A stretch of DNA of 64,000 nucleotides from an uncultured Alphaproteobacteria bacterium (GTDB lineage Bacteria > Pseudomonadota > Alphaproteobacteria > Rhizobiales > CAWCWK01). The position numbers and the translations under genes were made by a program. Location of the stretch: the NCBI GenBank assembly GCA_963799285.1, contig CAWCWK010000004.1, positions 270,309 to 334,308 of the forward strand, read 5' to 3'. Positions 32,032 through 55,351 of this stretch are shown here, in pieces. The notes below the pieces were generated by a model. It saw nothing but the letters and a program-made list of their open reading frames with translations. It searched no databases and had not been told where the DNA came from. Every line of letters begins with the position of its first letter. Position 1 is the stretch's first letter.

Positions 32032-32124
32032 GGCTCGGCCTCCCTCGTCGGCTCGTATTGGTATGCGTCTTGGCGCGCGTGTCGCCAGCATGCGCCGGGT
32101 TCGGCCGAGCGTCTACCGGAGCCG

Positions 32125-39266: not shown

Positions 39267-39285
39267 CGTCCGCTCTCCGCCCGCT

Positions 39286-39309
39286 AGATCATTTGCATGC
39301 TAACATTAT
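39286..39309. promoter_or_regulatory. Degenerate operator-like site AGATCATTTGCATGCTAACATTAT immediately upstream of the hydroxylase operon
   Basis: It matches the enamidase palindrome at 15 of 24 positions, including the contiguous CATGCTAAC core. It lies 20-43 nt upstream of the TTG start at 39266. Confidence 0.4.
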
Positions 39310-39405
39310 CGACACCAGACCGGGTGATGTCAACGCAAGGCTCGGGCGTCGATGCCGGTGGCCAATCCGTTCCTGCCGGCAGCCCGCCGTCAAGGGCGAG
39401 ACGGA

Positions 39406-39852: not shown

Positions 39853-39966
39853 CTCGTACTCCAAAGCTCGCCAGAGGCGCTGTTGAGAGGCCTTGGGGAT
39901 CTCCCAGTCATGCCACGACCATCCCTCGATGGGAAACCCGCCTTGCTCCGTCCTCACCAAGGGCAC

Positions 39967-39983
39967 GAACGAAATCGTCGTTC
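39967..39983. promoter_or_regulatory. Inverted repeat GAACGA-AATCG-TCGTTC in the marR-enamidase divergent region
   Basis: It uses the same AACGA/TCGTT words as the other sites but in everted order with a 5-nt spacer. It lies 115 nt upstream of the marR start chosen here. Confidence 0.3.
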
Positions 39984-40096
39984 AACACGCGGTTCCACCG
40001 TCGGGCAGCACATTCGGTAGCCGGCGTCGACCCGCGCCGGAGCCCGCGGCGCATAGCCGTGGTCGAACCCGGACCTTCATATTGATGCACTGCCGA

Positions 40097-40120
40097 AATT
40101 CGTTATCATGCTAACGAATT
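40097..40120. promoter_or_regulatory. Perfect 24-bp operator-like palindrome AATTCGTTA-TCATGC-TAACGAATT directly upstream of the enamidase RBS
   Basis: 9-bp perfect arms were read directly. It ends 3 nt before GGGGAGG and 18 nt before the ATG at 40139. Confidence 0.6.
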
Positions 40121-40138
40121 ATTGGGGAGGTCGAAACG

Positions 40139-41332
40139 ATGGCGGACGCCGCGAGCAAGCTGGTCGTGAGGAATATCGGGCTGCTTCTGACGGGCAAGAT
40201 CGAGGCGCCGATAGCGGACGGGGACTGCGTGATCGCCATCGACGGGCGCATTCACGCCTTCGGCTACGAGCGCGACCTCGACACCGAAGGCGCCGATACG
40301 ATCGTCGACGCCAAGGGCGTCACACTCGCGCCCGGCCTCATCGACAGCCATGTCCACCCGGTCGTCGGCGATTACACGCCCCGCCAGCAGCAGCTCCACT
40401 GGATCGATTCGACCTTGCATGGCGGCGTCACGACCATGATCTCAGCCGGCGAGGTACACATGCCGGGCCGCCCGAAGGACATCGTCGGCCTCAAGGCGAT
40501 GGCGATCGCGGCGCAGCGTTGGTACGAGAACTTTCGCCCCTCCGGCGTCAAGGTGCTTGCCGGCGCCCCCGTCATCGAGCACGGCATGGAGGAGCACGAC
40601 TTCAAGGAACTGGCCGACGCCGGCGTGCGGTTCCTCGGCGAGGTCGGTCTCGGCACCGTCAAAGACGGCAAGACAGCCAACCAGATGGTCTCCTGGGCGC
40701 GCAAATACGGCATCCAGTCGACGATCCACACGGGCGGACCCTCGATCCCCGGCTCGGGGCTCATCGACGCGGACATGGTGCTGGAGACCGGCACCGATGT
40801 CGTCGGGCATATTAATGGCGGCCACTCGGCCCTGCCAGACGATCAGATCGTCTGCCTCTGCGAGAACTGCGCCAAGGGCCTCGAGATCGTCCACAACGGC
40901 AACGAGCGGGCCGCCCTCTTGACGCTCAACACGGCGCGAGAGCTCGACAAGCTCGACCAGATCATCCTCGGAACGGACGGGCCGGCCGGCTCCGGCGTGC
41001 AGCCTTTGGGCATCTTGCGCATGGTCGCCATGTTGTCCGCGCTCGGCAATGTCGATGCTGCGACGGCCTTCTGCTTCGCCAACGGCAACACGGCCCGCCA
41101 GCGCGAACTCGATACCGGCCTGCTCGAGAAGGGCTATGCCGCCGATTTCGTCCTCATGGACCAGGCCCAGCACGCGCCCGGCAAGGACATTCTGGAGAGC
41201 GTGCAGCTCGGCAACCTGCCGGGCGTCGGCATGACGATCATCGACGGCGTCGTGCGCTCCATGCGCAGCCGCAACACGCCTCCGGCGCACAAGCTGCCTG
41301 AACTGGTGTCGGGCCCCCGTCCGGCTGCCTGA
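40139..41332 (+). CDS. ena: Enamidase (1,4,5,6-tetrahydro-6-oxonicotinate amidohydrolase) homologue
   Basis: It is colinear with the E. barkeri enzyme as I recall it: DSHVHPVVGDYTPRQ, LHGGVTTMISAGEVHMPGRPKD, GVKVLAGA, GEVGLGTVK, HTGGPSIPGSG, GHINGGHSA, LGILRM and SRNTPPA. Length is 397 aa. Confidence 0.8.
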   Translation: MADAASKLVVRNIGLLLTGKIEAPIADGDCVIAIDGRIHAFGYERDLDTEGADTIVDAKGVTLAPGLIDSHVHPVVGDYTPRQQQLHWIDSTLHGGVTTMISAGEVHMPGRPKDIVGLKAMAIAAQRWYENFRPSGVKVLAGAPVIEHGMEEHDFKELADAGVRFLGEVGLGTVKDGKTANQMVSWARKYGIQSTIHTGGPSIPGSGLIDADMVLETGTDVVGHINGGHSALPDDQIVCLCENCAKGLEIVHNGNERAALLTLNTARELDKLDQIILGTDGPAGSGVQPLGILRMVAMLSALGNVDAATAFCFANGNTARQRELDTGLLEKGYAADFVLMDQAQHAPGKDILESVQLGNLPGVGMTIIDGVVRSMRSRNTPPAHKLPELVSGPRPAA

Positions 41333-41615: not shown

Positions 41616-42341
41616 ATGACTTCCGCCATTCTTCCTATCCTCGACCCTGGTCGCGCGGACGCGTCGACCGATCCGGCGGTCTGGGTCGCCGGCGTCTTGC
41701 GCGATCGTATCGTCAAGGGATCCTACCCGTCGGGATCGCGGATCGTGGAGCGAACCGTGTCCGCCGAGCTTGCGGTGTCGCGGACGCCCGTGCGCGAGGC
41801 TCTCAAGTTGCTTCACGCCGATGGCCTCGTCAGGATCTCGCGGCACAAGGGCGCCCACGTCCTCCCATACGATGCGGACGAGGCCCTCGCCCTCTTCGAG
41901 GTCCTCGCGGCGCTGGAGGGCATGGCTGCGGAACGGCTTGCGAGCACAATAGATGATGGGGCGTTTACCGCTCTGGAAAGTCTGCACGCCCGGATGATGA
42001 ACCGCTACGAGGCTGGCGATCTGGAGGGCTATTTCGACAGCAATACCGAGATTCATGATCGGATCGTCGAAGGGTGCGCAAATCCCATCCTCATCGATAC
42101 CTATGGCCGGCTCATCGCGCGCGCCCGACGTGGCCGATATCTCGCGATCATGGACCCGCGCCGGCTGGAGGAGGCCGTCGCGGAGCATGAAGGCCTGATG
42201 GCTGCGCTGCGCCGGCGGCATCCGGGGGATGCAGCCGGCATCTGGCGCCGGCACCTGCTACATTCGGGCGAGACGGTCGCCAAGGCCATCAGCGCGAGGG
42301 CCGTTAGTCCGACGGCCACCCAGTCGGGGCACGCGAGCTGA
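41616..42341 (+). CDS. GntR-family (FadR/FCD subfamily) transcriptional regulator
   Basis: ERTVSAELAVSRTPVREALKLLHADGLVRISRHKGAHV is the winged helix-turn-helix. An all-helical FCD-like C-domain follows. Confidence 0.85.
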   Translation: MTSAILPILDPGRADASTDPAVWVAGVLRDRIVKGSYPSGSRIVERTVSAELAVSRTPVREALKLLHADGLVRISRHKGAHVLPYDADEALALFEVLAALEGMAAERLASTIDDGAFTALESLHARMMNRYEAGDLEGYFDSNTEIHDRIVEGCANPILIDTYGRLIARARRGRYLAIMDPRRLEEAVAEHEGLMAALRRRHPGDAAGIWRRHLLHSGETVAKAISARAVSPTATQSGHAS

Positions 42342-42880: not shown

Positions 42881-43951
42881 ATGACTCACCACGACTTACC
42901 GGGTTCGATCTCAGCCAGTATCGGACGCCGGACGCTTCTGAAGACGGCTGGCGCCTTTGCTATCGGCACGCTGGCGTCGCCCGCCATCCTGCGCGCGCAG
43001 ACGACCGAGATCGTCGTCGGCTGCGCCGGCTCGCACACCGCCTGGATGGAGGCGATCGTGGCGCCCCACATGAAGGCGGCGATCGGCGCGGACATTCTCT
43101 TCGAGGGCACCAAGTCTTCGGTGAACCTCGAGAAGATGTCGTCCAACAAGGATGACCCCTACCTCTCGGTCGTACAGATGGACGATCCGGTCATGATCCA
43201 GGCGGTGGAGGCCGACCTCCTGACGCCGATCGTGCCGGACGCGGTGCCGAACATGACGGATCTACGCGACGGCGCCGTCCACATGGACGGGATGTGGTGC
43301 AACTACGTCCAGCCCTGGGCGGGTATCGCCTATAACACGGATGCGAAGGGGGGCGTCTCGTCCTGGGCGGAGCTGTGGGATCCGGCCAACCAAGGCCAGA
43401 TCATCATCATCCCGTCGCTGCAGAACACGGAAGGGATGTGGACGCTCTTCGCCGCCGCCATGCTGGGCACGGGCAAGCCCTTCGCGGAAGCCCAATACGA
43501 GATCGACGCCGCCTTCGCCAAGCTGGAAGAGCTGAAGCCCAACCTGTTGTCGGTCTACACGACGATGAGCCAGGCGTTCAACCTGCTCGAACAGGGCGAG
43601 ATCGCCATGCTGTCGGGCAACTTCTCGTCCTACACCCTGCCGCGCAAGGCCGAGGGGGTGCCGGTCGAACTGGCCGCGCCGAGCGAGGGCATCTTCGCGA
43701 TGCCGTCAGGCATTTGCCTCGTCAAGGGCGGCCCCAACCCGGAGCTCGCGGCAGCCTATGTCAACGAGATGCTGGGGCCGAAGCTTCAGGCGGAGATCGC
43801 CGATTTCGCGACCTCGGTGCCGGCCAATACGACCGTCTCGGCCGGTGCCGTCATACCCGATGGCGTGCCGATCTATAGCCCGGACTGGGCCTTCGTCGCC
43901 GCGAACCGCCGCGCGTGGATCGACCGTTTCGACAAGCTGATGGCCCTCTAG
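42881..43951 (+). CDS. PotD/family-1 ABC substrate-binding protein with Tat-type signal
   Basis: I take the internal ATG at 42881 of ORF 42716..43951. The N-terminus is MTHHDLPGSISASIGRRTLLKTAGAFAIGTLASPAILRA. Confidence 0.8.
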   Translation: MTHHDLPGSISASIGRRTLLKTAGAFAIGTLASPAILRAQTTEIVVGCAGSHTAWMEAIVAPHMKAAIGADILFEGTKSSVNLEKMSSNKDDPYLSVVQMDDPVMIQAVEADLLTPIVPDAVPNMTDLRDGAVHMDGMWCNYVQPWAGIAYNTDAKGGVSSWAELWDPANQGQIIIIPSLQNTEGMWTLFAAAMLGTGKPFAEAQYEIDAAFAKLEELKPNLLSVYTTMSQAFNLLEQGEIAMLSGNFSSYTLPRKAEGVPVELAAPSEGIFAMPSGICLVKGGPNPELAAAYVNEMLGPKLQAEIADFATSVPANTTVSAGAVIPDGVPIYSPDWAFVAANRRAWIDRFDKLMAL

Positions 43952-43965
43952 GGCTCGAGGCGGAC

Positions 43966-45045
43966 ATGATGCACGAAGCGGCGCCTCAGAGCCGGAACTA
44001 TCTCGAGGTCTGGGGCGTCGCGAAGGCTTTCAAGGGCACGCGCGTCATGTCCGGTCTGAACGCCCGGGTGGACCGGGGCGAGCTCGTATCGCTCCTCGGT
44101 CCGTCCGGTTGCGGCAAGAGCACGCTTCTGCGGATCATCGCAGGGCTTCTGACGGCCGACGAGGGCTCCGTCATCGTCGGCGGACGCGAGATCACGCATC
44201 TGCCCGCGCATCGCCGCAACATCTCCGTCGTCTTCCAGAACTACGCGCTGTTCCCTCACCTGACCGTCGCGGAGAACGTCGCCTTCGGCCTGCGCGCACG
44301 AGGCACGGCGAAGGCCGCCACGGCCGCACTGGTGGCGGACGCACTCGCACTGGTGCGAATGAGCGAGTATGCGGACCGTTCGATCGCGGCCCTGTCGGGC
44401 GGGCAGCAGCAGCGGGTGGCGGTGGCCCGCGCGCTCGTTGTGAACCCCGACCTCCTCCTTCTCGACGAACCCTTCTCGGCACTGGACCGCAAGCTGCGCG
44501 AGACGATGCAGGTCGAGTTGAAGGCTCTCCTTCGCGATCGCGGCATGACGGCGATATTCGTGACGCACGATCAGGAGGAGGCGATGGGCGTCTCCGATCG
44601 CATCGCGGTGATGAACGAGGGCCGGATCGAGCAATTCGCCGATCCGTCGACGCTCTACGCCCGCCCCGCCTCACCCTTCGTCATGGACTTCGTCGGCCTG
44701 TCCGCCCGGATGCGCGGCACGGTCGCGGCGTCCGACGGCGGCACGCTCACGATCGAGACCGCCTATGGGATGGTCCGCGCGCCGGGCGATTCGGCGCCCA
44801 GCGCCGAGGTCCAGGTCGGCATCCGGCCGGAGCTGATGTCCGTCGAGGGCGGCGACAACCAAATTCGCGTGACGCTGGACGACGTCGTGGTGCTCGGCTC
44901 CAAGACCGTGCTGCACGGACGAGCCGCGCCCGGCGAGCGCATCATCTGCGAGCTCCCCGGCATCCGCACCGGCTTTCTCCGTGGCGAGACCGTGTCGCTC
45001 GGATGGGCGGTCGAGGACACGCTCGTCTACGAGGTCGCGGCATGA
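43966..45045 (+). CDS. ABC transporter ATP-binding protein (PotA type)
   Basis: GAGG lies 5 nt upstream of ATG 43966. Motifs: GPSGCGKSTLL, FQNYALFPHLTV, LSGGQQQRVAVARAL and LLLDEPFSALD. Confidence 0.9.
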   Translation: MMHEAAPQSRNYLEVWGVAKAFKGTRVMSGLNARVDRGELVSLLGPSGCGKSTLLRIIAGLLTADEGSVIVGGREITHLPAHRRNISVVFQNYALFPHLTVAENVAFGLRARGTAKAATAALVADALALVRMSEYADRSIAALSGGQQQRVAVARALVVNPDLLLLDEPFSALDRKLRETMQVELKALLRDRGMTAIFVTHDQEEAMGVSDRIAVMNEGRIEQFADPSTLYARPASPFVMDFVGLSARMRGTVAASDGGTLTIETAYGMVRAPGDSAPSAEVQVGIRPELMSVEGGDNQIRVTLDDVVVLGSKTVLHGRAAPGERIICELPGIRTGFLRGETVSLGWAVEDTLVYEVAA

Positions 45046-45872
45046 GCGCCCCGATCAGCCGTGTCGGCCATCTCGCGATCCCGGGTCTGGCCTATCTGGC
45101 CGTCGTCTATGCGCTGCCGCTGGTGCTGCTGCTCGCCAAATCCGTCCGGACGGCTGACGGACTGTCCTTCGGCGAATATGCCGACTTCTTCGGCGACGAG
45201 TTCAACCGCCGGGTGCTGTGGCGCACGCTGCGCGTCGCCGGGCTGACGACCGTGCTCGCGCTTCTCATCGCCTACCCGACGGCCTTTGCCATGAACCGCG
45301 CCAGGGGTGTCTGGCTGACCGTCTTCCTGGTCGCTCTGGTCCTGCCGATGTCGCTCGGCGTCGTCGTGAAGGCCTTCGCCTGGTCGATCCTCTTTCGCGC
45401 AAACGGGTTCCTCAACACGACCTTGCAGTGGATCGGGCTGACGGACGCGCCCGTGCGCATGCTCTTCACCGAGACGGCGCTGATCATCGGCGCGGCCAAC
45501 GTCTTCCTGCCTTTCATGGTGCTGCCGATCTACGCCGTCATTCGCCAGTTCGACGGGCGCCTGCCGGAGGCGGCCGCCTCGCTCGGCGCCGGGCCTTTCT
45601 TTCGCTTCTTCCACGTCACCCTGCCGCTCACCCTGCCGGGCGTGGTGGCGGGCTCGGCCTTCACCTTCTCGATGGCGATCTCGATGTACGTCATCCCGTC
45701 GCTGATCGTCGGCGAGCGCCAGCAGACGATGTCCATGCTGATCGCCCGCAGCTTCCTCTACCTGCGCAACGAACCGCTCGGCTCGACCATCTCCGCCGTG
45801 CTGCTGGCCATCGCGATCTTCGTGGTCGTCTTCTCCAGCTGGCTCGCCCGGCGGCTGGGGGCGCGCGCGTGA
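45042..45872 (+). CDS. ABC transporter permease (PotB-like)
   Basis: ATGA overlap with the ATPase stop. The N-terminus is MSAPISRVGHLAIPGLAYLAVVYALPLVLLL. The EAA loop is EAAASLGAGPFFRFFHVTLP. Confidence 0.85.
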   Translation: MSAPISRVGHLAIPGLAYLAVVYALPLVLLLAKSVRTADGLSFGEYADFFGDEFNRRVLWRTLRVAGLTTVLALLIAYPTAFAMNRARGVWLTVFLVALVLPMSLGVVVKAFAWSILFRANGFLNTTLQWIGLTDAPVRMLFTETALIIGAANVFLPFMVLPIYAVIRQFDGRLPEAAASLGAGPFFRFFHVTLPLTLPGVVAGSAFTFSMAISMYVIPSLIVGERQQTMSMLIARSFLYLRNEPLGSTISAVLLAIAIFVVVFSSWLARRLGARA

Positions 45873-46669
45873 CCCGCGTCGATCGCATCGCGCAAGGCCT
45901 GAGCTGGGCGGTCGGCCTCATCTGCATCGTCTTCCTGATGCTGCCGATCATCATCACGGTCGCCGCGTCATTCACCTCGTCGGCCGTCTACACCCTGCCG
46001 CCGCCCGAATGGTCGTTGCGCTGGTATGCCTCGCTTGAGCGCCGATCCGGCCTTTGGGACGCAGTCGTCCTCTCGCTCAATCTCGCGGCCGTCTCCACGG
46101 CGATCGCGCTCGTTCTCGGCACGCTCACCTCGATCGCCGTCGCCCGGGGCGACTTCCGAGGCCGTGACGCGATCGCGACCTTCGCCGTCTCGCCGCTGAT
46201 GATGCCCGGGCTCGTGGTCGGCGTCGCACTTCTCCAGTTCTTTCGCGAGATCGGATTGCGCGACGCCTATTGGTCGCTCTTGCTCGGCCATATCGTGATC
46301 ACGCTGCCCTTCGCGATGCGAACGCTGCTCGCCTCGATGTCGGCCTTCGACTTCGCGCTCGTCGATGCCGCCCGCACGCTGGGCCTGAGCTACCCCAAGG
46401 CGATCCTCAAGGTGCTCGTGCCCAACCTCGCGCCGTCCTACCTGACCGCCGGCCTCTTCGCCTTCCTCGCGTCGATGGACAACTATCCGATCTCGATCTT
46501 CCTGACGGATGCGCGCAACAAGACGCTGCCGATCAAGATGCTGCAATATCTCGAGGAACAGCCGGACCCTTCGCTCGCCGCCATCTCGTCGGGCCTCATC
46601 CTCCTCGCCGTCATCGTCCTCGCCTTCGGCGCACGGACCGTCGGTCTCAACCGGATGATCCAGGGATGA
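45869..46669 (+). CDS. ABC transporter permease (PotC-like)
   Basis: GTGA overlap with the previous stop. The N-terminus is VTRVDRIAQGLSWAVGLICIVFLMLPIIITV. The EAA loop is DAARTLGLSYPKAILKVLVP. Confidence 0.8.
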   Translation: MTRVDRIAQGLSWAVGLICIVFLMLPIIITVAASFTSSAVYTLPPPEWSLRWYASLERRSGLWDAVVLSLNLAAVSTAIALVLGTLTSIAVARGDFRGRDAIATFAVSPLMMPGLVVGVALLQFFREIGLRDAYWSLLLGHIVITLPFAMRTLLASMSAFDFALVDAARTLGLSYPKAILKVLVPNLAPSYLTAGLFAFLASMDNYPISIFLTDARNKTLPIKMLQYLEEQPDPSLAAISSGLILLAVIVLAFGARTVGLNRMIQG

Positions 46670-46736: not shown

Positions 46737-47486
46737 ATGATGCGCATCCTTCTCGTCAATCCGAACATGACCCGAGCCATGACCGACACGATGGTCGAGA
46801 TCGCCGGGCCGCTGGCGGGCGACCGTGCCGAGATTGTGCCCGTGACGGCGACGCGAGGGTTTCCCTACATCGCATCGCGCGCGGAGGCGACGATCGCCGG
46901 CGCCATCGCGATCGAGACCATCGCCGACAATCTGCGCGGCATCGACGCCGTCGTGATCGCCGCCTTCGGCGACCCCGGGCTCGCAGGCGCGCGCGAGCTC
47001 TTCGACGTGCCGGTGGTGGGGCTCGCGGAGGCGTCGGCGATGTCGGCCGCGATGCTGGGCGAACGCTTCTCGGTCGTCACCTTCTCGCCGCTCATGATGC
47101 GGTGGTACGCGGCCTCGATCATCGATACCGGCCTCGGTGCCCGCTTCACGGGGGTGCGCACGCCGCCATCGCATATCGCCGATGTCGGCCGCGCCGCGAA
47201 CGACTTGCGCGACGAGCTCGTCGCGCTCGCCAGGCGCGCCGTCAGGGAGGACGGCGCGGACGTCGTCATCCTCGGCGGGGCGCCGCTGGCGGGCCTTGCG
47301 CCCCAGATCGCGCACGAGGTCCCGGCCGCCGTTATCGATCCGATTGCGGCGGCGACCGCGCAGGCCCTCGCGCTCGCATCGCTCGGCATCCGTCTGGGCG
47401 GTCGGGCGGGGAAGCCAGCGCCGAAGGCGTCGATGGGTCTGTCCGACCGGCTCTCGGCAATCATCGCGGCGGAGGGCGGGGAATGA
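46737..47486 (+). CDS. Asp/Glu/hydantoin-racemase-family protein lacking both catalytic cysteines
   Basis: GGAGGGG lies ~9 nt upstream of ATG 46737. The N-terminus is MMRILLVNPNMT. The positions of the two catalytic Cys motifs read IAAFGDPGL and ILGGAPLAG, versus IAC(W/F)GDPGL and LLGCAGM in hydantoin racemases as I recall them. Confidence 0.75.
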   Translation: MMRILLVNPNMTRAMTDTMVEIAGPLAGDRAEIVPVTATRGFPYIASRAEATIAGAIAIETIADNLRGIDAVVIAAFGDPGLAGARELFDVPVVGLAEASAMSAAMLGERFSVVTFSPLMMRWYAASIIDTGLGARFTGVRTPPSHIADVGRAANDLRDELVALARRAVREDGADVVILGGAPLAGLAPQIAHEVPAAVIDPIAAATAQALALASLGIRLGGRAGKPAPKASMGLSDRLSAIIAAEGGE

Positions 47487-48880
47487 GCTTCGATACGATC
47501 ATTACGGGTGCGCGTGTGGTGTCACCTGGTGGCGTCGCGGTCTGCGATATCGGCATCACCGGCGGGGTCATCACGGCGCTGGCCGCCCGTCTCGAAGGTG
47601 CGGGCGAGGTCATAGCGGCTGACGGCCTGATCGCGATGCCGGGCGGGATCGACAGCCACGTGCACATCTCGCAGCCCTCCGGTCCCGGCATCGAGATGGC
47701 GGACGATTTCGCCTCCGCGACCCGCTCCGCCGTGGCGGGCGGCAACACGACCGTGCTGCCCTTCTGCCTGCCCGAGGACGGCCAGAGCCTGCGCGAAGCC
47801 GTCGCAGCCTATCACGCGAAGGCGGAAGGCCAATGCCATTGCGACGTCTCCTTCCATCTGATCGTGGCGGATACGGGCCCTGCGACGCTGGGACAGGACC
47901 TGCCGGCGCTCATCAATGCCGGCCACACGAGCTTCAAGGTCTTCATGACCTATAGGGGGCTGGCGCTCTCCGACCGGCAGATCCTCGACGTCATGGCCGT
48001 GGCGCGCGAGCATGGCGCCCTCGTCATGGTGCACGCCGAGAACGAGGACGCGATCGAGTTCCTGCGCGACAAGGCCGATCGCGAGGGGCGGACCGAGCCC
48101 CACCACCACGCGCGCTCGCGCCCCGTCGCCGTGGAGCGCGAGGCGACGCACCGCGCGATCTCGCTGGCCGAGGTCGCCGACGTACCGCTGACCATCGTGC
48201 ATGTCTCCAACGGCGAGGCATTGGACGAGATCCGTCGTGGGCGCCGGCGCGGGGCGAAGGTCTTCGCCGAGACCTGCCCGCAATACATCACGCTGACGGC
48301 GGACGATCTCGACCGCGCGGGCTTCGAGGGTGCAAAGTATGTCTGCTCGCCCCCGCCGCGCACGACGGCCGATTGGGACGCGATCTGGAACGGCATCACC
48401 GGCGGCGATTTCGAGCTCTTCTCGTCCGATCACTGCCCGTTCCGCTTCGCCGATCCCGCCGGCAAAGACGCGCCCGGGGCGCGACAGTCCTTCCGCAACA
48501 TCCCGAACGGCATCCCGGGTGTCGAGACGCGTCTGCCCATCCTCTTCTCGGAGGGGGTAACCAAGGGGCGGATCTCGCTGGAGACGTTCGCTGCGATCAC
48601 GGCGACCAACCACGCCCGGCTCTACGGCCTGACGTCCAAGGGCGCGATCATGGTGGGCAAGGACGCCGACATCGTCCTATGGGACCAGAGACTGACGCGT
48701 CCGATCCGGCAGGCGGACCTCCACCACGGCTCGGACTATACGCCCTGGGAGGGTTTCGAGGTCACCGGCTGGCCGGTGCGCACGATCCTCCGCGGCCGGA
48801 CCATCATGCGCGACGGCGAGCCGGAGGGCGATCCGACTGGCGGCCACATCGCGCGCGCGGCGCCGGAGTTGCGGCCATGA
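47483..48880 (+). CDS. D-hydantoinase / dihydropyrimidinase / imidase-type cyclic amidohydrolase
   Basis: ATGA overlap with the previous stop. The full metal-ligand set is present: GGIDSHVH, SFKVFMTY (Lys to be carboxylated), VMVHAEN, IVHVS and SSDHCP. Length is 465 aa. Confidence 0.9.
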   Translation: MSFDTIITGARVVSPGGVAVCDIGITGGVITALAARLEGAGEVIAADGLIAMPGGIDSHVHISQPSGPGIEMADDFASATRSAVAGGNTTVLPFCLPEDGQSLREAVAAYHAKAEGQCHCDVSFHLIVADTGPATLGQDLPALINAGHTSFKVFMTYRGLALSDRQILDVMAVAREHGALVMVHAENEDAIEFLRDKADREGRTEPHHHARSRPVAVEREATHRAISLAEVADVPLTIVHVSNGEALDEIRRGRRRGAKVFAETCPQYITLTADDLDRAGFEGAKYVCSPPPRTTADWDAIWNGITGGDFELFSSDHCPFRFADPAGKDAPGARQSFRNIPNGIPGVETRLPILFSEGVTKGRISLETFAAITATNHARLYGLTSKGAIMVGKDADIVLWDQRLTRPIRQADLHHGSDYTPWEGFEVTGWPVRTILRGRTIMRDGEPEGDPTGGHIARAAPELRP

Positions 48881-49629
48881 TCCATGCGCCCCTAGACGGC
48901 GCCCGCGTGGGCATGCTGACACCGTCGTCCAATACCGTGCTGGAACCTTACACGGCCGCTATGTTTGCGCCATTGGGCGAGGAGGCGAGCGCGCATTTCG
49001 CCAGGTTCCGCGTCGTCGAGATCTCGCTGTCGGAAGCCTCGCAAACCCAGTTCGATCTCGCGCCTGTCCTTGAGGCGGCGACCCGGCTCGCGGAACTGCG
49101 ACCGCGCCTCATCGCCTGGAACGGCACGTCCGCATCCTGGCTGGGGCTCGACAAGGACCGCGCGCTCTGCGCCGCGATCGAGGCCGAGACCGGCATCCGC
49201 GCGACCTCTACCGTGCTGGGCTTCGAGCGCGTCCTTCGCGCGATGAAGGCCAGGCGGATCGGCCTGGTGACGCCCTATATCGCGGACGTCCAGGACCGCA
49301 TCGCCGCGAACTTCGCGGCCCAGGGCATCGAGGTCGTCGCCAGCGAGCGGCTCGACGTCAGGGATAACTACGCCTTCGCCACCACCCCGCCCGAACAGGT
49401 GGGCGAGATGGCACGATGCGCCGCGAAGGACCGTCCCGACGCCCTCGTCATCATGTGCACCAATTTCCGCGGCGCTCCGCAAGCGGCCCGGATCGAGGCC
49501 GAGACGGGCGTGCCCGTGCTCGATTCCGTGGCGGTCACCGCCGCGCACTGTCTGCGCGAGATGGGCTGCGACCCCTCTCGCGTGACCGGCTGGGGCTCCG
49601 TGTTCCAGCGTTTCGCCGACCCTTCCTGA
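48877..49629 (+). CDS. Maleate-isomerase / arylmalonate-decarboxylase-like member of the Asp/Glu racemase superfamily, with only the second catalytic Cys
   Basis: ATGA overlap with the previous stop. Blocks are VGMLTPSSNTVLEP, then WNGTSAS where two-Cys enzymes carry the first Cys, then VIMCTNFRG retaining the second. Confidence 0.7.
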   Translation: MIHAPLDGARVGMLTPSSNTVLEPYTAAMFAPLGEEASAHFARFRVVEISLSEASQTQFDLAPVLEAATRLAELRPRLIAWNGTSASWLGLDKDRALCAAIEAETGIRATSTVLGFERVLRAMKARRIGLVTPYIADVQDRIAANFAAQGIEVVASERLDVRDNYAFATTPPEQVGEMARCAAKDRPDALVIMCTNFRGAPQAARIEAETGVPVLDSVAVTAAHCLREMGCDPSRVTGWGSVFQRFADPS

Positions 49630-49676
49630 CCCCCCCAAACGGGCCGGAAGAGCCCGCCATCGACAGAGAGACCATC

Positions 49677-50711
49677 ATGACCCTGAAGACCACACTCTCC
49701 GCAGTCCTTCTCGCCACCACGGTCCTCGCCGGTGCGGCAAGCGCCGAGACATATCGCGTCATGGGCCAGCCCGCCGCGACCGGGCTCATCCAGAAGAATG
49801 TCGAGCAGCCCTTCTTCGAGAGCTTCGCCGAGAAGACCGGCCTCGACATGACGGCCGACTACCAGCCCGTCGACGTGACCGGCATCAAGGACACCGAGCA
49901 GCTGCGCATCCTCAAGGACGGGCTGTTCGACATCGTCTCGCTGCGCCTCAGCCAGGTCTCGCGCGACGAGCCGACCATTCTCGGCCTCGACCTCGTCGGC
50001 CTGAACCCCGACTACGCGACCGGCAAGGTAACGGTCGAGAAGTTCGCGCCCATCGTCGACGAGGCGCTGCAAGACAAGTTCAACACCAAGCTGCTCGGCG
50101 TCTGGCCATTCGGGCCGCAGGTTCTCTTCTGCAAGCCGGAGATCGCTTCGCTGTCCGACCTCACGGGGCTCAAGGTGCGCGTATACGATCAGAATCTGGC
50201 CAACTTCATCTCGCTCGTCGGCGGCACGCCCGTGCCGCTCTCCTTCCCCGAAGTCCAGCAATCGCTGGCGCGCGGCGTGGTCGATTGCGCTGTGACCGGT
50301 CCGTCCTCGGCCAACTCTGCCGGATGGCCCGAGGTCACGACCCACATGCTCCCGATCGCCTTCCAGCTCGCGATGAACGGCTACGGGATGAATCTCGATA
50401 AGTGGAACGCGCTGTCGCCCGAGGAGCAGGAGAAGGTGCAGACCGCCTTCGACGGCCTGATCGAGGAGATCTGGACCTATTCCGAGGAGCTCTTCGTCGA
50501 CGCCGTGTCCTGCAACACCGGTGGCGAGGCCTGCGAGACGGGCACGAAATACGACAACGTCCTCGTCAGCCCGACCGAGGCCGACACCGCCCTCATCGGC
50601 ACCGCCGTCACGGACGTCTCCTTCCCTGCCTGGAAGGAGACCTGCGATGCGGTCAACGAGGGCTGCTCGGCAAAGTGGCTGGAGACCGTAGGAACGGCCT
50701 ACGACTTCTGA
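49677..50711 (+). CDS. TRAP transporter substrate-binding protein (DctP-like)
   Basis: I take the internal ATG at 49677 of ORF 49416..50711. The signal peptide is MTLKTTLSAVLLATTVLAGAASA. TRAP Q and M genes follow. Confidence 0.75.
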   Translation: MTLKTTLSAVLLATTVLAGAASAETYRVMGQPAATGLIQKNVEQPFFESFAEKTGLDMTADYQPVDVTGIKDTEQLRILKDGLFDIVSLRLSQVSRDEPTILGLDLVGLNPDYATGKVTVEKFAPIVDEALQDKFNTKLLGVWPFGPQVLFCKPEIASLSDLTGLKVRVYDQNLANFISLVGGTPVPLSFPEVQQSLARGVVDCAVTGPSSANSAGWPEVTTHMLPIAFQLAMNGYGMNLDKWNALSPEEQEKVQTAFDGLIEEIWTYSEELFVDAVSCNTGGEACETGTKYDNVLVSPTEADTALIGTAVTDVSFPAWKETCDAVNEGCSAKWLETVGTAYDF

Positions 50712-50720
50712 TCGCGCAAC

Positions 50721-50746
50721 GTCGCGCCCCGGTATCGGGGCGCGAC
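50721..50746 (+). terminator. Strong intercistronic hairpin GTCGCGCCCCG-GTAT-CGGGGCGCGAC between TRAP binding-protein and membrane genes
   Basis: An 11-bp perfect GC-rich stem with a 4-nt loop was read directly, 10 nt after the stop. No U-tract follows. It is likely a partial terminator or mRNA stabiliser. Confidence 0.45.
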
Positions 50747-50765
50747 AAGACCAAGGGGCCTCCCA

Positions 50766-51323
50766 GTGATGAATGCCGTCGCCACATGGATTTCGCGCCT
50801 CTTCGGGGCCGCCTTGCTCTTTCTCTCCGGCTTCGTCGCGCTGGAGACATTGCTTCGCAAGGTCTTCAACACGTCCCTGCAGGGCGCGGACGAGCTTGGC
50901 GGCTATGTTCTGGCCTTCGGTGCGTCCGCTGCTTTCGTGGTGGCCTTGATCGACCGCGCGCATGTCAGGATCGACGTGCTGCATCAGCGCCTGCCCGTCG
51001 CCCCGCGCGCCTGGATCGACTTCGCTGCCGTGCTGTCGCTTGGCGTCTTGGGCCTCTTCTTCCTCTATATCGGCTGGTTCGTGGTCACCGACACGATTGC
51101 CTACGGGTCGACCGCGGCCACGCCCTGGCGGACGCCGCTCATCTATCCGCAAGGCGCGTGGTATGCGGGCCTGGCGGTCTTCGCGATCGCCTCGTTCTGG
51201 CTATCGGCGCGCGCGTTGCGGCTCGTCGTGACCGGACGGATCGATCAGGTGGCCCGCGAGTTCGCGCCCTGCAGCGCGGCCGAGGAACTGGCCGAGGAAC
51301 TCGATCGGCTCTCCCGCCGATGA
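50766..51323 (+). CDS. TRAP transporter small permease (DctQ-like)
   Basis: It has four hydrophobic segments and contains GADELGGYVLAFGASAAFVVAL. It sits between the P and M genes. The start is GTG 50766 or ATG 50769. Confidence 0.8.
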   Translation: MMNAVATWISRLFGAALLFLSGFVALETLLRKVFNTSLQGADELGGYVLAFGASAAFVVALIDRAHVRIDVLHQRLPVAPRAWIDFAAVLSLGVLGLFFLYIGWFVVTDTIAYGSTAATPWRTPLIYPQGAWYAGLAVFAIASFWLSARALRLVVTGRIDQVAREFAPCSAAEELAEELDRLSRR

Positions 51324-51351
51324 CCCGCACCATGCCCGAAAGCGCCCGCAC

Positions 51352-52665
51352 ATGAGCATGATCGACGTCCTTGTCGGCTTCACGACGATGATGGGCCTCT
51401 TGATGCTCGGCATGCCCGTCGCCGTCGTCATGGTGGTCATGGGCGTGGCCGGGGGCATGATCCTCTATGGGCCTGTCCTGCTGAAATCCATGGGGCCGGT
51501 CCTCTGGGGCGTCTCCAACGAGAACGTGCTGACGGCCATTCCGCTCTTCATCCTGCTCGGCGAATTGCTTCTGCGCTCGGGTCTGGCGGACCGGATGTAT
51601 GCGACGCTGTCCCTCTGGCTCGGGCGCCTGCCCGGCGGACTGCTGCACACCAATATCGGGGCCTGCTCGCTCTTCGCCGCAACGTCAGGGTCCTCGGTTG
51701 CGACGGCTGCGACCGTCGGGACAGTGGCGCTGCCGGCGCTGAACGAGCGCGGCTACGACCCGGCCCGCTCGCTTGGCTCCCTAGCGGCCGGCGGGACGTT
51801 GGGCATCCTCATCCCGCCCTCCGTCAACCTGCTGATCTACGGCTCGCTCGCCTCAGTCTCGGTCGGCCAGCTCTTCGTCGCTGGCATCGTGCCGGGCATC
51901 CTTCTGACATTGACCTTCATGGCCTTTGTGGTCGCCGAGAGCCTGTGGCGCCGCTCGCGCGGTTTGGCCGACGCATCGCGCGTCGAGGATGCCTTGCCCT
52001 TGTTCGAGCGCGTGCGAGCGCTCATCCATCTCGTGCCGGCGGCGGTCGTCTTTCTCGTCGTGATGGGCTCGATCTATCTGGGCATCGCGACGCCGACCGA
52101 AAGCGCGGCGCTCGCCGTGCTCGTCGCGCTCGTCTTCGTGTGGCGCGAGGGCAGGCTGTCTTTCGCCTTCCTCGACATATGCTTTCGGCAGACCGCGAAG
52201 ACGACCGGAATGATCCTCCTCATCATAGCGGCCGCCTTCACGCTGAACGTGACGCTGGCACTGGGTGGCATCACCGGCGTCATCTCCGATTGGGTGGACG
52301 GGCTGGGTCTCGGGCCCACGGGGCTCCTCTTCGCGCTGATGCTTTTCTATCTGATCCTCGGAATGTTCATGGACGTCCTGTCGATGCAGGTGCTGACGAT
52401 CCCGATCGTCGTCCCCATCGTGATAGCCGCCGGCATCGATCCCGTCTGGTTCGGCATCTTCGTCGTGCTGATGAGCGAACTGGGTATGATAACGCCACCC
52501 GTAGGCATGAACCTCTATGTCGTGCAGGGCGTACGCACCGACGGCGGGCCGTTCACCGACGTCGTGCGTGGCGCCATCCCCTATGCAGTGCTGATGCTGC
52601 TCTTCACCGTCCTCCTCATCTTCGTACCCGGGGTTGCGATGTGGCTGCCACGGAGCCTGGGATGA
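51352..52665 (+). CDS. TRAP transporter large permease (DctM-like)
   Basis: It is a 437-aa polytopic protein. Typical DctM blocks are present (LFILLGELLLRSGLADRM, GSSVATAATVG, GTLGILIPPS). Confidence 0.9.
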   Translation: MSMIDVLVGFTTMMGLLMLGMPVAVVMVVMGVAGGMILYGPVLLKSMGPVLWGVSNENVLTAIPLFILLGELLLRSGLADRMYATLSLWLGRLPGGLLHTNIGACSLFAATSGSSVATAATVGTVALPALNERGYDPARSLGSLAAGGTLGILIPPSVNLLIYGSLASVSVGQLFVAGIVPGILLTLTFMAFVVAESLWRRSRGLADASRVEDALPLFERVRALIHLVPAAVVFLVVMGSIYLGIATPTESAALAVLVALVFVWREGRLSFAFLDICFRQTAKTTGMILLIIAAAFTLNVTLALGGITGVISDWVDGLGLGPTGLLFALMLFYLILGMFMDVLSMQVLTIPIVVPIVIAAGIDPVWFGIFVVLMSELGMITPPVGMNLYVVQGVRTDGGPFTDVVRGAIPYAVLMLLFTVLLIFVPGVAMWLPRSLG

Positions 52666-54005
52666 TCTGGCAACACGACGCTACCGCACTGCTGGAGTCA
52701 TTCGCGGCAGGTCGGGCGACGCCGAGCGAGGCGGTCGAGGCCGTTCTCCAACGCATCGCGGCCACCGATCCGGTCGTGAACGCCTACTCCGCCGTGTCCG
52801 ACACCCTCCGGATGGAGGCCGATGCCTCGACCGCCCGTTGGTCCGGCGGTACGCCATCCGGCCCGCTCGACGGCCTGCCGCTGGTGATCAAGGACAATCT
52901 CGTCAGTGCGGGCCTGCCGGCGTCGTGGGGCAATGCCGCCCTCGCCAAGCGCGTGCCCGCGCGAGACGAAAGTCCCGTGGCGGCGTTACGTGAGGCTGGC
53001 GCCTTAGTGATCGGCAAGGGCAACACGCCCGAGTTCGCGGTCGAAGGCTTTACCGACAACCTGACCTTCGGTGCGACCCGCAATCCCTTCGATGCGGCTC
53101 TGACACCGGGCGGCTCCTCTGGCGGCGTCGTCTCGGCAATTGCCTGCGGCTCGGCCTTTGCAGGCCTCGGGACGGATGGCGGCGGCTCGATCCGCCGCCC
53201 GGCCGGCTATACGGGCCTCGTCGGTCTGAAGCCCGGGATCGGCCGTGTCCCGCGCGGTGGCGGCCTGCCGCAAGTGCTGCTCGATTTCGAGGTCGTGGGA
53301 CCGATCGCGCGCTCGCTTCGCGATGTTCGCCTGCTGGACGAGGTGCTGTCCGGCACGCCGGCAGAGTCTCGCCTGGCCGCACCTTCGCGCATCCTCGCCG
53401 TTCCTACGCTCGGAGACGCGCCGTGCGATCCAGCCATCCTCGCCGCGTTCGAGGACGTCCTGGGGCGCCTCCTCGAGCGGGGTCACAGGGTCGAGATCGG
53501 CGGGCTGCCACATGACTTGACCGATCTGAACGCAGGCTGGTCCCGAATCGGACAGATCGGCCTCGCTGCCTATTTCGCCCGCGATCAGGAGGTGGCCGAA
53601 GCGGCCGCACCTCGATATCGCGAGATGGCGAAGGCCGGTTCCGAAGCCTCCGCCACCGAGTTCCAGGCCGTGCTGGACGCCGTCTACGACCTGCGCCATT
53701 CGGCGCGCGATCTCTGGGGGCACGACGCGATCCTGATGCCGACCTCAGCCGCCCAACCATGGGCCGCGCGCGAAAGCCACCCGCGTGAGATCGCCGGACG
53801 CGCCGTCGGCCCTCGTGGCCATGCCGTCTATACGGGCTGGGTGAATGCGGCGGGCCTGCCGGCGCTCGCCTTCCCGGCCCCCCTGTCCAAAGGGCTCCCG
53901 ATCGGAATCCAGTTGGTGGGGCCGATGGGATCGGAGGGGCGGCTCATGGATATTGCCGAGCCGATACTCGCCCCGTTCCGCTGGCCCGACCTTACGCTAG
54001 GTTGA
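52662..54005 (+). CDS. Amidase-signature (GatA-like) amidase
   Basis: ATGA overlap with the dctM stop. Blocks are LDGLPLVIKDNL and GGSSGGVVSAIACGSAFAGLGTDGGGSIRRPA. Confidence 0.9.
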   Translation: MIWQHDATALLESFAAGRATPSEAVEAVLQRIAATDPVVNAYSAVSDTLRMEADASTARWSGGTPSGPLDGLPLVIKDNLVSAGLPASWGNAALAKRVPARDESPVAALREAGALVIGKGNTPEFAVEGFTDNLTFGATRNPFDAALTPGGSSGGVVSAIACGSAFAGLGTDGGGSIRRPAGYTGLVGLKPGIGRVPRGGGLPQVLLDFEVVGPIARSLRDVRLLDEVLSGTPAESRLAAPSRILAVPTLGDAPCDPAILAAFEDVLGRLLERGHRVEIGGLPHDLTDLNAGWSRIGQIGLAAYFARDQEVAEAAAPRYREMAKAGSEASATEFQAVLDAVYDLRHSARDLWGHDAILMPTSAAQPWAARESHPREIAGRAVGPRGHAVYTGWVNAAGLPALAFPAPLSKGLPIGIQLVGPMGSEGRLMDIAEPILAPFRWPDLTLG

Positions 54006-54711
54006 CCGAGACGTCGCCGAGCCCTTCGATCCACCCCTCGATCCGCGTGCCCGGCCCGAACCAGGGAAGGCCGCACAGCGAACCGGTGATGACGATCTGC
54101 CCCGGCCGCACGCCGCCGCAATGATCGCCGAGGTGCCGGAGAAGGAGATCGAGATTGGCGAGCGCGGAACCGCCCGGCACTGTCGCGGGACCATCGAGAA
54201 CATAGCTGTCATCGGCCGTCAGTCGGGCCGGCACCTCGCCGAAATCGGCACCGTCCCAGTCCGTCGGCCCCTCTCCGATGACGATCCCGGCGTTCATCTG
54301 AAGATCAGCGAACTTGAGCGACGGGTTCTCGGCGGCCCGGCCCGCCAGGCGGGTATCGACGAGTTCCAGAACCGTGCGGGGGCGGAGATAGCGCTGCGGT
54401 TCGTCGGGGAGGCCGTCTCCGGGCAGTGCCGTGAGGACCTCGAAGCCGACCTCCAGCTCGATCCCTAACCGGTCGGCCACTGTGCGAACGCCGCGATTCT
54501 CCGTACCGTAGCGGGCGGGTATGGGGGCGAGGATGGGCAGCCCGTCGGGCACCGCGCTCACCTTGAAGCCCGCCACAGGCCCCAGCGCCGTGCAGACCGT
54601 CGTCTGTATCGACAGGATGTCGCGGCGCCTGAGCGCTGCGATGGGCGACGCGATCCTCACGCCGGTGCGATGCGCGCCCAGCAGCCTTTGCGCCAGCATG
54701 TCAGGCGTCAC
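53992..54711 (-). CDS. 2-keto-4-pentenoate hydratase / MhpD-HpcG-like hydratase-decarboxylase family protein
   Basis: GFKVSAVPDG...IELEVGFEV...PGQIVITGSL.G. The 3' end overlaps the convergent amidase by 14 nt. Confidence 0.55.
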   Translation of the reverse strand: MTPDMLAQRLLGAHRTGVRIASPIAALRRRDILSIQTTVCTALGPVAGFKVSAVPDGLPILAPIPARYGTENRGVRTVADRLGIELEVGFEVLTALPGDGLPDEPQRYLRPRTVLELVDTRLAGRAAENPSLKFADLQMNAGIVIGEGPTDWDGADFGEVPARLTADDSYVLDGPATVPGGSALANLDLLLRHLGDHCGGVRPGQIVITGSLCGLPWFGPGTRIEGWIEGLGDVSVNLA

Positions 54712-54715
54712 CGCG

Positions 54716-55351
54716 TCATCCTTCCAGAAGCGCCACGACCTCGTCGGCCGCGCAGATGATCGGATTTAGGAGGGGGAGGGGACTTCGCGACCGCAGCCGC
54801 TCGGCGGCCTCGCCCAACGGACCGCCGCCGATGATGATGCGTTCCGCGCCCTTCGCCCGAGCGTCCTCGATCGCACCCAACAGGGCTGCGTCTAGGGCGT
54901 CGTCGTTTGCCATGAGGGCCAGGGGGGCGCCATCAGAGACGAAGCATCCGATATAGGGCGCCGCACCGGCATGCCGCCGCATCAGATCGTCGATTGCGAT
55001 GCGCAGGCCGGGCGTCGTGGTGGCCACGGCGAAGGGTACACATTCTTTGGCAGCGGAACGCGCAGAAGCCGCCCCAATGCCGATGACGGGACAAGTCAGC
55101 CTACGCGCGAGGGCCTCGGCTCCCGGATCGCCGAAGGCCGCCACGATGACGGCGGCCACATCTCGCGGAACGCTCATTGCGGCGACCTGGCGGCCCGCTT
55201 CGGCAAGCGCATCGGCTGTGACGATCATCCCGGGACCGTGAGGCATGGTCCATCCCTGCGGCGCGGCGCCCAGCGCGCGCGACGCAATCGCGCACATCCG
55301 CTTGGTCGTGGACGCATTGCTATTGGGATTGACGAGAAGGACCGCGTTCAA
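54716..55351 (-). CDS. Asp/Glu/hydantoin-racemase-family protein lacking both catalytic cysteines (paralogue 2)
   Basis: The N-terminus is MNAVLLVNPNSNAS. The motif positions read VAAFGDPGA and IIGGGPLGE. Confidence 0.7.
   Translation of the reverse strand: MNAVLLVNPNSNASTTKRMCAIASRALGAAPQGWTMPHGPGMIVTADALAEAGRQVAAMSVPRDVAAVIVAAFGDPGAEALARRLTCPVIGIGAASARSAAKECVPFAVATTTPGLRIAIDDLMRRHAGAAPYIGCFVSDGAPLALMANDDALDAALLGAIEDARAKGAERIIIGGGPLGEAAERLRSRSPLPLLNPIICAADEVVALLEG

Follow-up and report, generated by a model that had tools for sequence, protein, structure and literature searches.

Two racemase-family proteins without catalytic cysteines in a hydantoinase gene cluster of an uncultured alphaproteobacterium

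RacL1, RacL2 and the columns of the catalytic cysteines

The window analysed here, a 64,000-nucleotide (nt) stretch of contig CAWCWK010000004.1 from an uncultured alphaproteobacterium, carries two genes of the hydantoin/allantoin-racemase family, which are referred to as RacL1 and RacL2. The region has a G+C content of ~67%, and its closest relatives, judged from a search for RacL1 homologues, are Roseobacteraceae, e.g., Maritimibacter, Salipiger, and Poseidonocella. A preceding examination of the DNA letters (the sequence-only reading) had quoted four motifs from the two genes, in which the catalytic cysteines of this family were missing. All four motifs were found in these genes, at the positions listed below.

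46737..47486, plus strand: RacL1, 249 amino acids, hydantoin/allantoin-racemase family, zero cysteines, clade signature AAFGDPG...[GAS]GAPL
46956..46982, plus strand: RacL1 motif 1, IAAFGDPGL; Ala76 occupies the Cys79 column of the Klebsiella allantoin racemase, and Asp79 is the invariant acidic residue
47268..47294, plus strand: RacL1 motif 2, ILGGAPLAG; Gly181 occupies the Cys184 column, and Pro183 is 100% conserved
54716..55351, minus strand: RacL2, 211 amino acids, TTG start, clade signature [AS]AFGDPG...GGGPL
55118..55144, minus strand: RacL2 motif 1, VAAFGDPGA; Ala72 occupies the first catalytic column
54809..54835, minus strand: RacL2 motif 2, IIGGGPLGE; Gly176 occupies the second catalytic column

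Both proteins matched PF01177 (cut-off 31), RacL1 with 143.4 bits over profile positions 1–211 and RacL2 with 92.5 bits over positions 1–210. The HMMER alignment to the Klebsiella allantoin racemase (PDB 3qvj; motifs IACFGDPGL and LGCGGMA) aligned Cys79 with Ala and Cys184 with Gly in RacL1 as well as in RacL2, and a MAFFT alignment of 121 sequences gave the same assignment of the catalytic columns. For RacL1, the alignment to 3qvj/3qvk had an E-value of about 1e-27, and its identity to the Klebsiella enzyme and the hydantoin racemases HyuA/HyuE was ~31–36%. RacL1 contains no cysteine at all. RacL2 contains five, none of which is conserved in its clade, where the highest Cys frequency of any column is 0.38.

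The AlphaFold models of both proteins were confident, with predicted local distance difference test (pLDDT) values of 93.7 for RacL1 and 96.8 for RacL2. The best Foldseek matches were 3qvk, 3qvj, 5lg5, 5lfd, and 2eq5, with template modelling (TM) scores of 0.72–0.92, and they indicated a fold of two pseudo-symmetric alpha/beta domains separated by a cleft; the TM scores to allantoin racemases were 0.86–0.92 for RacL1 and 0.82–0.87 for RacL2. An identical RacL1 protein is called in a public genome, and a 211-amino-acid database protein (P0123) is 100% identical to RacL2 with the same start. High G+C content at third codon positions (GC3) marks the real genes in the window, and the GC3 of RacL1 is 0.89. 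On these alignments and predicted allantoin-racemase folds, RacL1 and RacL2 are well-folded members of the hydantoin/allantoin-racemase branch that lack the Cys dyad.

Both Cys columns that characterise a two-thiol hydantoin/allantoin racemase (EC 5.1.99.5 / 5.1.99.3) are thus empty of cysteine in the two proteins. In the epimerase NozR, a Cys-to-Ala substitution at either of the same columns yields inactive protein (PMC10156859). Because the columns are solid, RacL1 is Cys-free, and the NozR mutants are inactive, RacL1 and RacL2 are ruled out as conventional two-thiol racemases, and 1,1-proton transfer of the conventional kind is excluded. This agrees with the sequence-only reading, both in the missing cysteines and in its conclusion that these are not conventional two-base racemases.

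RacL1 and RacL2 are only 29% identical to one another and, by their sequences, represent two separate clades rather than recent paralogues. All 120 best RacL1 homologues (60–100% identity, mostly from Rhodobacterales) carry [AG]AFGDPG together with GGAPL, and six are devoid of cysteine. A pattern search of 80 genomic loci with 36–75% identical RacL1 homologues, drawn from Alpha-, Beta-, and Gammaproteobacteria, Arthrobacter and its relatives, and Streptomyces, detected [GAS]GAPL[AR] in 80/80 and AAFGDPG in 75/80, the search having landed on an unrelated stretch in the remaining five. Most RacL2 homologues (Rhodobacterales, Streptomyces, Bradyrhizobium, Polaromonas) carry [AS]AFGDPG and GGGPL, and four are entirely free of cysteine. 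Both clade signatures persist down to about 36–40% identity in Proteobacteria and Actinobacteria.

For a wider view, an exhaustive HMMER search of 1.84 billion representatives of 50%-identity clusters was used, which returned 3657 matches at E <= 1e-3. The states of the two catalytic columns were counted in the 117 full-length proteins among the best 150 of these matches, a sample biased toward the RacL1 query. Ala/Gly, with both cysteines absent, was the state of 67 of these 117 representatives nearest RacL1; the first Cys only (Cys/Gly) was present in 21, and the canonical Cys/Cys pair in 10. In a neighbour-joining tree, which is rough and star-like and was used for the separation of groups and not for counting loss events, the canonical proteins (with the Klebsiella and Pseudomonas enzymes), the first-Cys-only proteins, the RacL1 type, and the RacL2 type fell apart into distinct groups. 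Despite the query bias, these counts point clearly to the cysteine-free proteins as a major part of the hydantoin/allantoin-racemase branch.

The Cys/Cys dyad is called conserved across the family in recent papers (PMC12661438, PMC10156859); against this published view, cysteine-free proteins outnumber canonical ones 67 to 10 near the query. The cysteine-free state is a family-wide feature and not a peculiarity of the window, and it marks a large mis-annotated subfamily, whose members are routinely labelled 'aspartate/glutamate racemase family protein', 'hydantoin racemase', or 'allantoin racemase'. The sequence-only reading had spoken of paralogues that have lost their cysteines. The two proteins do lack them, but a recent pair does not fit the identity of 29%; as judged from the alignments, the cysteine-free state is no local loss and is an old fixed signature of two widespread clades.

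Two further protein classes were seen among the matches. The sizeable first-Cys-only class (P0276, P0282, P0309, P0318–P0320 and similar proteins), an intermediate one, reads IACFG[DE]PG ... GGA[AG], has Tyr44 and Arg48 in common with the RacL1 clade, and often carries Glu in place of the FGDPG Asp; its members may be one-thiol enzymes. The second comprises tandem two-unit hydantoin-racemase fusions of 468–512 amino acids (P0254, P0299, P0311, P0351, P0343), four of which have Cys motifs in both halves, while in P0343 all four catalytic columns are occupied by Ser (VSDSG / LGSTTM). No fusion of a cysteine-free unit to a hydrolase was found among the 468–512-amino-acid matches in the cluster representatives. 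In P0316 and P0390, RacL1 seems to be fused to a hydantoinase, but this looks like an artefact of a frameshift or of gene calling.

Gene neighbourhoods of RacL1 and RacL2

RacL1 and RacL2 are accompanied by genes for transporters, including an ATP-binding cassette (ABC) importer and a tripartite ATP-independent periplasmic (TRAP) transporter, for hydrolases, and for a third superfamily member. The accompanying genes are the following.

41616..42341, plus strand: GntR/FCD regulator, located ahead of the RacL1 module in the window as well as in most related loci
42881..46669, plus strand: ABC importer of the PotABCD/PhnSTUV type (substrate-binding protein, ATPase, two permeases), a generic NCBIfam assignment
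47483..48880, plus strand: D-hydantoinase/dihydropyrimidinase (NF009941, 701.6 bits, cut-off 647; TIGR02033, 484.6 bits)
48877..49629, plus strand: AMDaseL, an arylmalonate-decarboxylase/EutA/maleate-isomerase-like protein with a single Cys (WNGTSASW ... IMCTNF; PF17645, 73.9 bits)
49677..52665, plus strand: DctPQM-type TRAP transporter (NCBIfam, generic DctP)
52662..54005, plus strand: amidase-signature amidase, convergent with the RacL2 operon (PF01425, 257 bits)
53992..54711, minus strand: distant MhpD/FAH-like protein (2-keto-4-pentenoate hydratase family; weak NCBIfam and PDB matches)

The stop codon of RacL1 and the start codon of the hydantoinase gene overlap in the ATGA at 47483–47486, so the translational coupling of the two genes proposed by the sequence-only reading stands. 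The hydantoinase scored 396.6 bits against the D-hydantoinase of PDB entry 1NFG, and its HxH motif and the Lys of its SFKVFM motif are kept across the related loci. AMDaseL is the third gene that the Asp/Glu-racemase superfamily has in the cluster, and its first catalytic column holds Asn-Gly; its NCBIfam matches to EutA and arylmalonate decarboxylase (AMDase) remained under their cut-offs, and its PDB matches were maleate isomerase and AMDase. RacL2 is the first gene of a two-gene minus-strand operon and is separated by a 4-nt gap from the MhpD-like gene. No canonical racemase is encoded elsewhere in the window.

A hydantoinase-type gene lies directly downstream of RacL1 on the same strand in 61 loci, with a gap of <=100 nt in 59/61; the gaps have a median of 10 nt, and the two genes overlap in 11 of the pairs. 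Many of these 61 loci come from closely related Micrococcaceae, and the independent lineages are Rhodobacterales, Bradyrhizobium-like and other Alphaproteobacteria, Micrococcales, and Streptomyces. AMDaseL adjoins in most RacL1 loci, and its WNGTS[GA]SW and CTN motifs are near-invariant across the 61, which gives it one Cys. Several loci (numbered here with L) have RacL1 without an adjacent hydantoinase (L003–L007, L017, L020, L023, L024), and a second cysteine-free paralogue lies near RacL1 in L003, L004, L018, L086, and L087, as in the window. Because L002 encodes, at a distance of 9 kb from RacL1, a canonical Cys/Cys racemase (VIACFDDTGL, VVLGCAGMA), the canonical and the cysteine-free kinds are probably not redundant.

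The arrangement of the module varies between replicons. The Arthrobacter plasmid pZXY21 carries it as five genes beside transposase genes, namely an ACS-family transporter of the major facilitator superfamily (MFS), GntR, RacL1, hydantoinase, and AMDaseL. On a Klebsiella oxytoca plasmid, GntR and RacL1 are transcribed divergently from an operon that encodes an ABC transporter and oxidoreductases, a second Asp/Glu-racemase-family protein, a hydantoinase, and a member of the FAH family. The Salipiger sp. CCB-MM3 plasmid (L093) has one operon with GntR, ABC transporter, PuuE-like, amidase, and RacL1 genes, then a LysR gene and a second operon with hydantoinase, AMDaseL, TRAP transporter, and amidase genes. 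Celeribacter and Oceanicola carry ABC transporter, PuuE-like, amidase, RacL1, and hydantoinase genes convergent with RacL2. The ABC transporter upstream of RacL1 in Salipiger, Celeribacter, and Oceanicola is the same as in the window, and synteny of the TRAP transporter with the window was observed in L001 and on the Salipiger plasmid. The window appears to be a fused and trimmed version of the two operons, from which the PuuE-like, amidase, and LysR genes were dropped and in which RacL1 is now translationally coupled to the hydantoinase gene.

The triad of RacL1, hydantoinase, and one-Cys AMDaseL, found on plasmids or secondary replicons of Arthrobacter, Salipiger, Klebsiella, and Cupriavidus, defines an uncharacterised, horizontally mobile catabolic module. 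Its TRAP and ACS-type MFS transporters suggest an anionic substrate, and the TRAP transporter suggests a carboxylate. The NCBIfam assignments of the transporters are generic (PotABCD/PhnS-like, DctP, ACS-MFS) and name no specific substrate. To our knowledge, the natural substrates of D-hydantoinase-type enzymes have long been unclear, and the RacL1 module may help to reveal one in bacteria.

RacL2 keeps company of its own. In Tropicimonas (55% identity), the MhpD-like gene comes after RacL2, and the order in Polaromonas is MFS, RacL2, amidase, and FAA_hydrolase, the amidase being 47% identical to that of the window. The RacL2 module with an amidase and a FAH-family gene recurs in Alpha- and Betaproteobacteria. 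In Streptomyces, an MFS gene and a RacL2-type gene overlap by 4 nt. In Bradyrhizobium (L084/L085, 6306–8684), a dCache/HAMP methyl-accepting chemotaxis protein gene is followed, after a 12-nt gap, by a RacL2-type gene, and a sensing-related role for some cysteine-free members is a possibility.

One Rhodovulum locus (L088, 9650–10800) has an intact RacL2 homologue, while the downstream MhpD-like gene is broken across two reading frames and the amidase is reduced to its C-terminal third; the partners have apparently decayed and RacL2 was kept.

The survey bears out the interest of the sequence-only reading in the spread of the Cys-less proteins: they are widespread, and their neighbours are hydantoinase, AMDaseL, amidase, and FAH/MhpD-like genes. 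The same reading had placed both genes in one hydantoinase-centred cluster. Both are indeed constrained beside amide hydrolases, but RacL2 belongs to its own module with an MhpD/FAH-like gene and an amidase; it adjoins the RacL1–hydantoinase pair in Celeribacter and Oceanicola.

A divergent neighbouring cluster at 31702–41332 resembles the nicotinate pathway of the Eubacterium barkeri/Azorhizobium type. It encodes an enamidase (40139–41332; 345 bits to PDB 2VUN), a MarR regulator, the flavin adenine dinucleotide subunit and the fused 2Fe-2S/Mo subunit of a xanthine-dehydrogenase-family hydroxylase, and a 502-amino-acid protein without a family match that has an N-terminal CxxCxxxC motif and may be a 6-hydroxynicotinate reductase. 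Also encoded there are a UPF0280 protein, a pair of AA_synth (PF06684) paralogues, and an ABM protein. That this cluster, with its enamidase and molybdenum hydroxylase, belongs to the same pathway as RacL1 was considered and rejected, as the enamidase has no homologue in the 87 related loci that were searched; it is treated as a separate neighbour.

Constraint on the pocket and candidate functions

RacL1 and the enzymes encoded beside it have diverged at roughly equal rates. The identities to the window in L001 are 71% for RacL1, 82% for hydantoinase, 74% for AMDaseL, and 71% for amidase, and in the Arthrobacter loci, where the amidase was not compared, they are 42% for RacL1, 30% for hydantoinase, and 42% for AMDaseL. 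In the racemase fold, the loops after the beta-strands form the active-site cleft. In an alignment of 49 orthologues, these post-beta-strand loops hold 29 of the 52 invariant RacL1 positions, compared with 15 expected (P = 4e-6).

The residues that RacL1 has in common with canonical enzymes are N8-P9-N10, T16, G41, D70, F77-G78-D79-P80-G81, P92, G95, E98, and T115. Asn12, Thr118, and Thr119 of the Klebsiella enzyme, the three residues that hydrogen-bond allantoin (PMC12661438), correspond in the alignment to N10, T115, and Phe116 of RacL1. Both RacL1 and RacL2 keep the Asn and the first Thr of the trio; in place of the second Thr, RacL1 has Phe, and RacL2 has retained Thr. T37, Y44, R48, E50, W123, Y124, and P183 are specific to the RacL1 clade in comparison with canonical enzymes, and Y44, R48, W123, Y124, and P183 are invariant or nearly so in it; Pro183 replaces a Gly of the canonical GCGGM/GCAGM motif. 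RacL2 has P178 as the equivalent of P183 and a TTTP loop, and it has neither Tyr44 nor Arg48. Of the charged residues, the FGDPG Asp alone is invariant in both clades. The aligned sequences indicate that the fixed Pro remodels the second catalytic loop, with Ala and Gly at the former thiol sites, and that, as the models also predict, the fold and the ligand-binding loops are retained in RacL1 and RacL2.

Since large, old, and conserved cysteine-free subfamilies stand beside ring-opening amide hydrolases, RacL1 and RacL2 probably serve thiol-free chemistry or ligand binding. The reading that we favour, tentatively and at somewhat less than even chances, is that they are a thiol-independent isomerase that readies an anionic cyclic ureide or imide for the ring-opening hydrolase. 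The transporters of the cluster would import such a compound, RacL1 and RacL2 would bind it and, by a thiol-free isomerisation, would convert it to the form accepted by the neighbouring hydrolase. This could proceed by a one-base or water-relayed proton transfer through the FGDPG Asp, with Tyr44 and Arg48 as additional candidates in the RacL1 clade, or by an epimerisation or ring-chain tautomerisation at a heteroatom-substituted centre that would require no carbon-acid deprotonation. RacL1 and RacL2 hold the genomic position of canonical racemases, beside stereospecific ring-opening amide hydrolases, i.e., a D-hydantoinase or a PuuE-like deacetylase-family hydrolase with an amidase in the case of RacL1, and an amidase with an FAH/MhpD-like protein in the case of RacL2.

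A further-reaching form of this proposal, which we regard as rather unlikely as a whole, is that the cysteine-free clades are true enzymes which, without thiols and by a mechanism not yet seen in the superfamily, epimerise ureide or imide rings or interconvert their ring and chain forms, and gate an anionic N-heterocycle into a widespread hydantoinase/amidase pathway. Such a mechanism might rest on a ring that opens and closes reversibly, on a proton relay of Asp and Tyr, or on a bicyclic intermediate like the one through which allantoin racemises without an enzyme.

Several points weigh against isomerisation. A replacement second base conserved in both clades was not found, RacL2 being devoid of Tyr44 and Arg48. 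The FGDPG Asp is invariant in canonical enzymes too and may therefore have a structural role. The dead Cys-to-Ala mutants of NozR show that the scaffold alone does not racemise (PMC10156859). No activity, solved structure, or phenotype of any cysteine-free member was found in the PDB or by a full-text literature search. Finally, distant RacL2 relatives adjoin an MFS transporter or chemoreceptor gene, which a binding protein would fit equally well.

The main rival, serious if doubtful, is a non-catalytic pseudoenzyme that keeps the pocket and performs no chemistry; it would be a subunit in the cytoplasm with a binding, delivery, or regulatory task for the adjacent hydrolase (the hydantoinase in the case of RacL1), a transporter, or a sensor. 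In every cysteine-free member examined, the catalytic residues have become inert Ala and Gly, and no replacement base is common to the two clades. Conserved gene order is often found for physically interacting proteins, and the tight order of RacL1 and hydantoinase, with tiny or negative gaps, is kept from Actinobacteria to Proteobacteria; RacL2 relatives are co-transcribed with the MFS transporter or follow the dCache chemoreceptor. As a variant, RacL1 may be an obligate non-catalytic subunit that sets the substrate or the stereospecificity of D-hydantoinase-type enzymes. However, conservation is highest in the pocket loops, where the clade-specific Tyr44, Arg48, and Pro183 are fixed; a scaffold would have no need of this, whereas a binding protein possibly would. 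Nor are the loci where RacL1 stands apart from any hydantoinase, or the canonical racemase near RacL1 in L002, what a pseudoenzyme partner would lead one to expect. As to the new activity or scaffolding role offered by the sequence-only reading, the clustering of invariant residues in the loops of the active site speaks against a pure scaffold and would fit either ligand binding or new catalysis.

It is improbable that RacL1 and RacL2 are AMDase-like lyases or decarboxylases, in which oxyanion loops would hold an enolate or enediolate after the loss of CO2 or another leaving group from a carboxylated ureide and water or Tyr44 would protonate it. The superfamily does include AMDase and the algal dimethylsulfoniopropionate lyase Alma1 (the latter as cited in a published paper), the TRAP and ACS-family MFS transporters point to carboxylated substrates, and Tyr44 and Arg48 of RacL1 would suit a carboxylate or a proton donor. 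However, neither protein matches PF17645 or NF052327, and the GTS dioxyanion hole and Cys188, absent from both, are present in AMDaseL, which is the more obvious decarboxylase of the cluster. RacL2, in addition, has no counterpart of the Tyr44 and Arg48 on which this chemistry would draw.

A conventional racemase disguised by misalignment or by a moved catalytic Cys is very improbable. All columns of both clades were checked for a relocated Cys, and the only frequent one was at position 127 of the RacL1 clade (WYxxC, four residues after W123; window 47115–47117), where 178 of 211 members (84%) have Cys, 18 (including the RacL1 of the window) have Ser, and 15 have Thr, Val, Ala, Leu, or Ile. 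This candidate was rejected, as a residue that is Ser in the RacL1 of the window and aliphatic in others is not catalytic. The position aligns with a hydrophobic Leu of the Klebsiella enzyme in a partial alignment, and its variability in a hydrophobic column is the pattern of a buried residue, which it probably is, rather than a relocated catalyst. The complete absence of Cys refutes the explanation for the RacL1 of the window, six RacL1 homologues and four RacL2 homologues are likewise Cys-free, and three independent alignment methods concur on the catalytic columns. Decaying pseudogenes or annotation artefacts, suggested by the missing cysteines and nothing beyond, are refuted by the intact frames, the GC3 of 0.89 and public twin of RacL1, the confident models, and the cross-phylum signature, and retain next to no probability.

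If the cysteine-free proteins are enzymes, they represent a new reaction type or mechanism on a cofactor-free scaffold that is used industrially (hydantoinase process, AMDase). If they are binding partners, they are a clear bacterial case of a pseudoenzyme fixed beside its hydrolase.

Comparison with characterised racemases and their relatives

The nearest characterised proteins, namely the Klebsiella and Pseudomonas allantoin racemases, HyuA/HyuE, NozR, and OpaE, all have at least one of the two cysteines. No solved structure from the cysteine-free clades was present among the PDB matches, and no study of a cysteine-free hydantoin-racemase clade was found in the full-text literature search.

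HpxA of Klebsiella pneumoniae (PDB 3QVJ/3QVK/3QVL) and HyuA/HyuE belong to the same Pfam family as RacL1 and RacL2 and have the same length and fold (TM 0.82–0.87). The framework of NPN, T, FGDPG, and the G-x-x-x-[LM] loop is common to all of them, and so is, in the case of RacL1, the habit of adjoining a stereospecific ring-opening amidohydrolase. In contrast, Cys79 and Cys184 of HpxA are replaced by Ala and Gly in RacL1 and RacL2, and the second loop reads G-C-[AG]-G-M in HpxA/HyuA/HyuE, whereas it is G-[GA]-[AG]-P-L with a fixed Pro in RacL1 and RacL2. The RacL1 clade has also added the invariant Tyr44, Arg48, Trp123, and Tyr124 relative to HpxA, and HpxA Thr119 is Phe in RacL1.

The best structural match was AllR of Pseudomonas fluorescens (PDB 5LFD/5LG5), with a TM score of up to 0.92. 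AllR has Gly at the first Cys column (QAGYGEHG) and Glu for Asp, so a member of this branch works without the first Cys. Its Glu, as Cendron et al. are said to have reported in 2016, takes over as the catalytic base. However, AllR keeps the second Cys (LGCGGM), which RacL1 and RacL2 do not, and where AllR has the compensating Glu, they have Asp.

AMDase (PF17645) and EutA-like proteins are members of the same superfamily, and the loss of one thiol goes with a changed reaction type in AMDase, whose residues at the catalytic columns are Gly74 and Cys188; the titles of PDB entries among the Foldseek matches name AMDase G74C and C188S mutants. RacL1 and RacL2 lack both the GTS dioxyanion motif and Cys188 of AMDase and group with hydantoin/allantoin racemases by sequence and fold.

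The diketopiperazine epimerase NozR and the peptidyl epimerase OpaE come from the same hydantoin/allantoin-racemase subfamily as RacL1 and RacL2, a branch that has diversified in substrate. NozR and OpaE keep the Cys/Cys dyad, whereas RacL1 and RacL2 naturally carry the Ala-type genotype that is 'dead' in NozR and yet are conserved.

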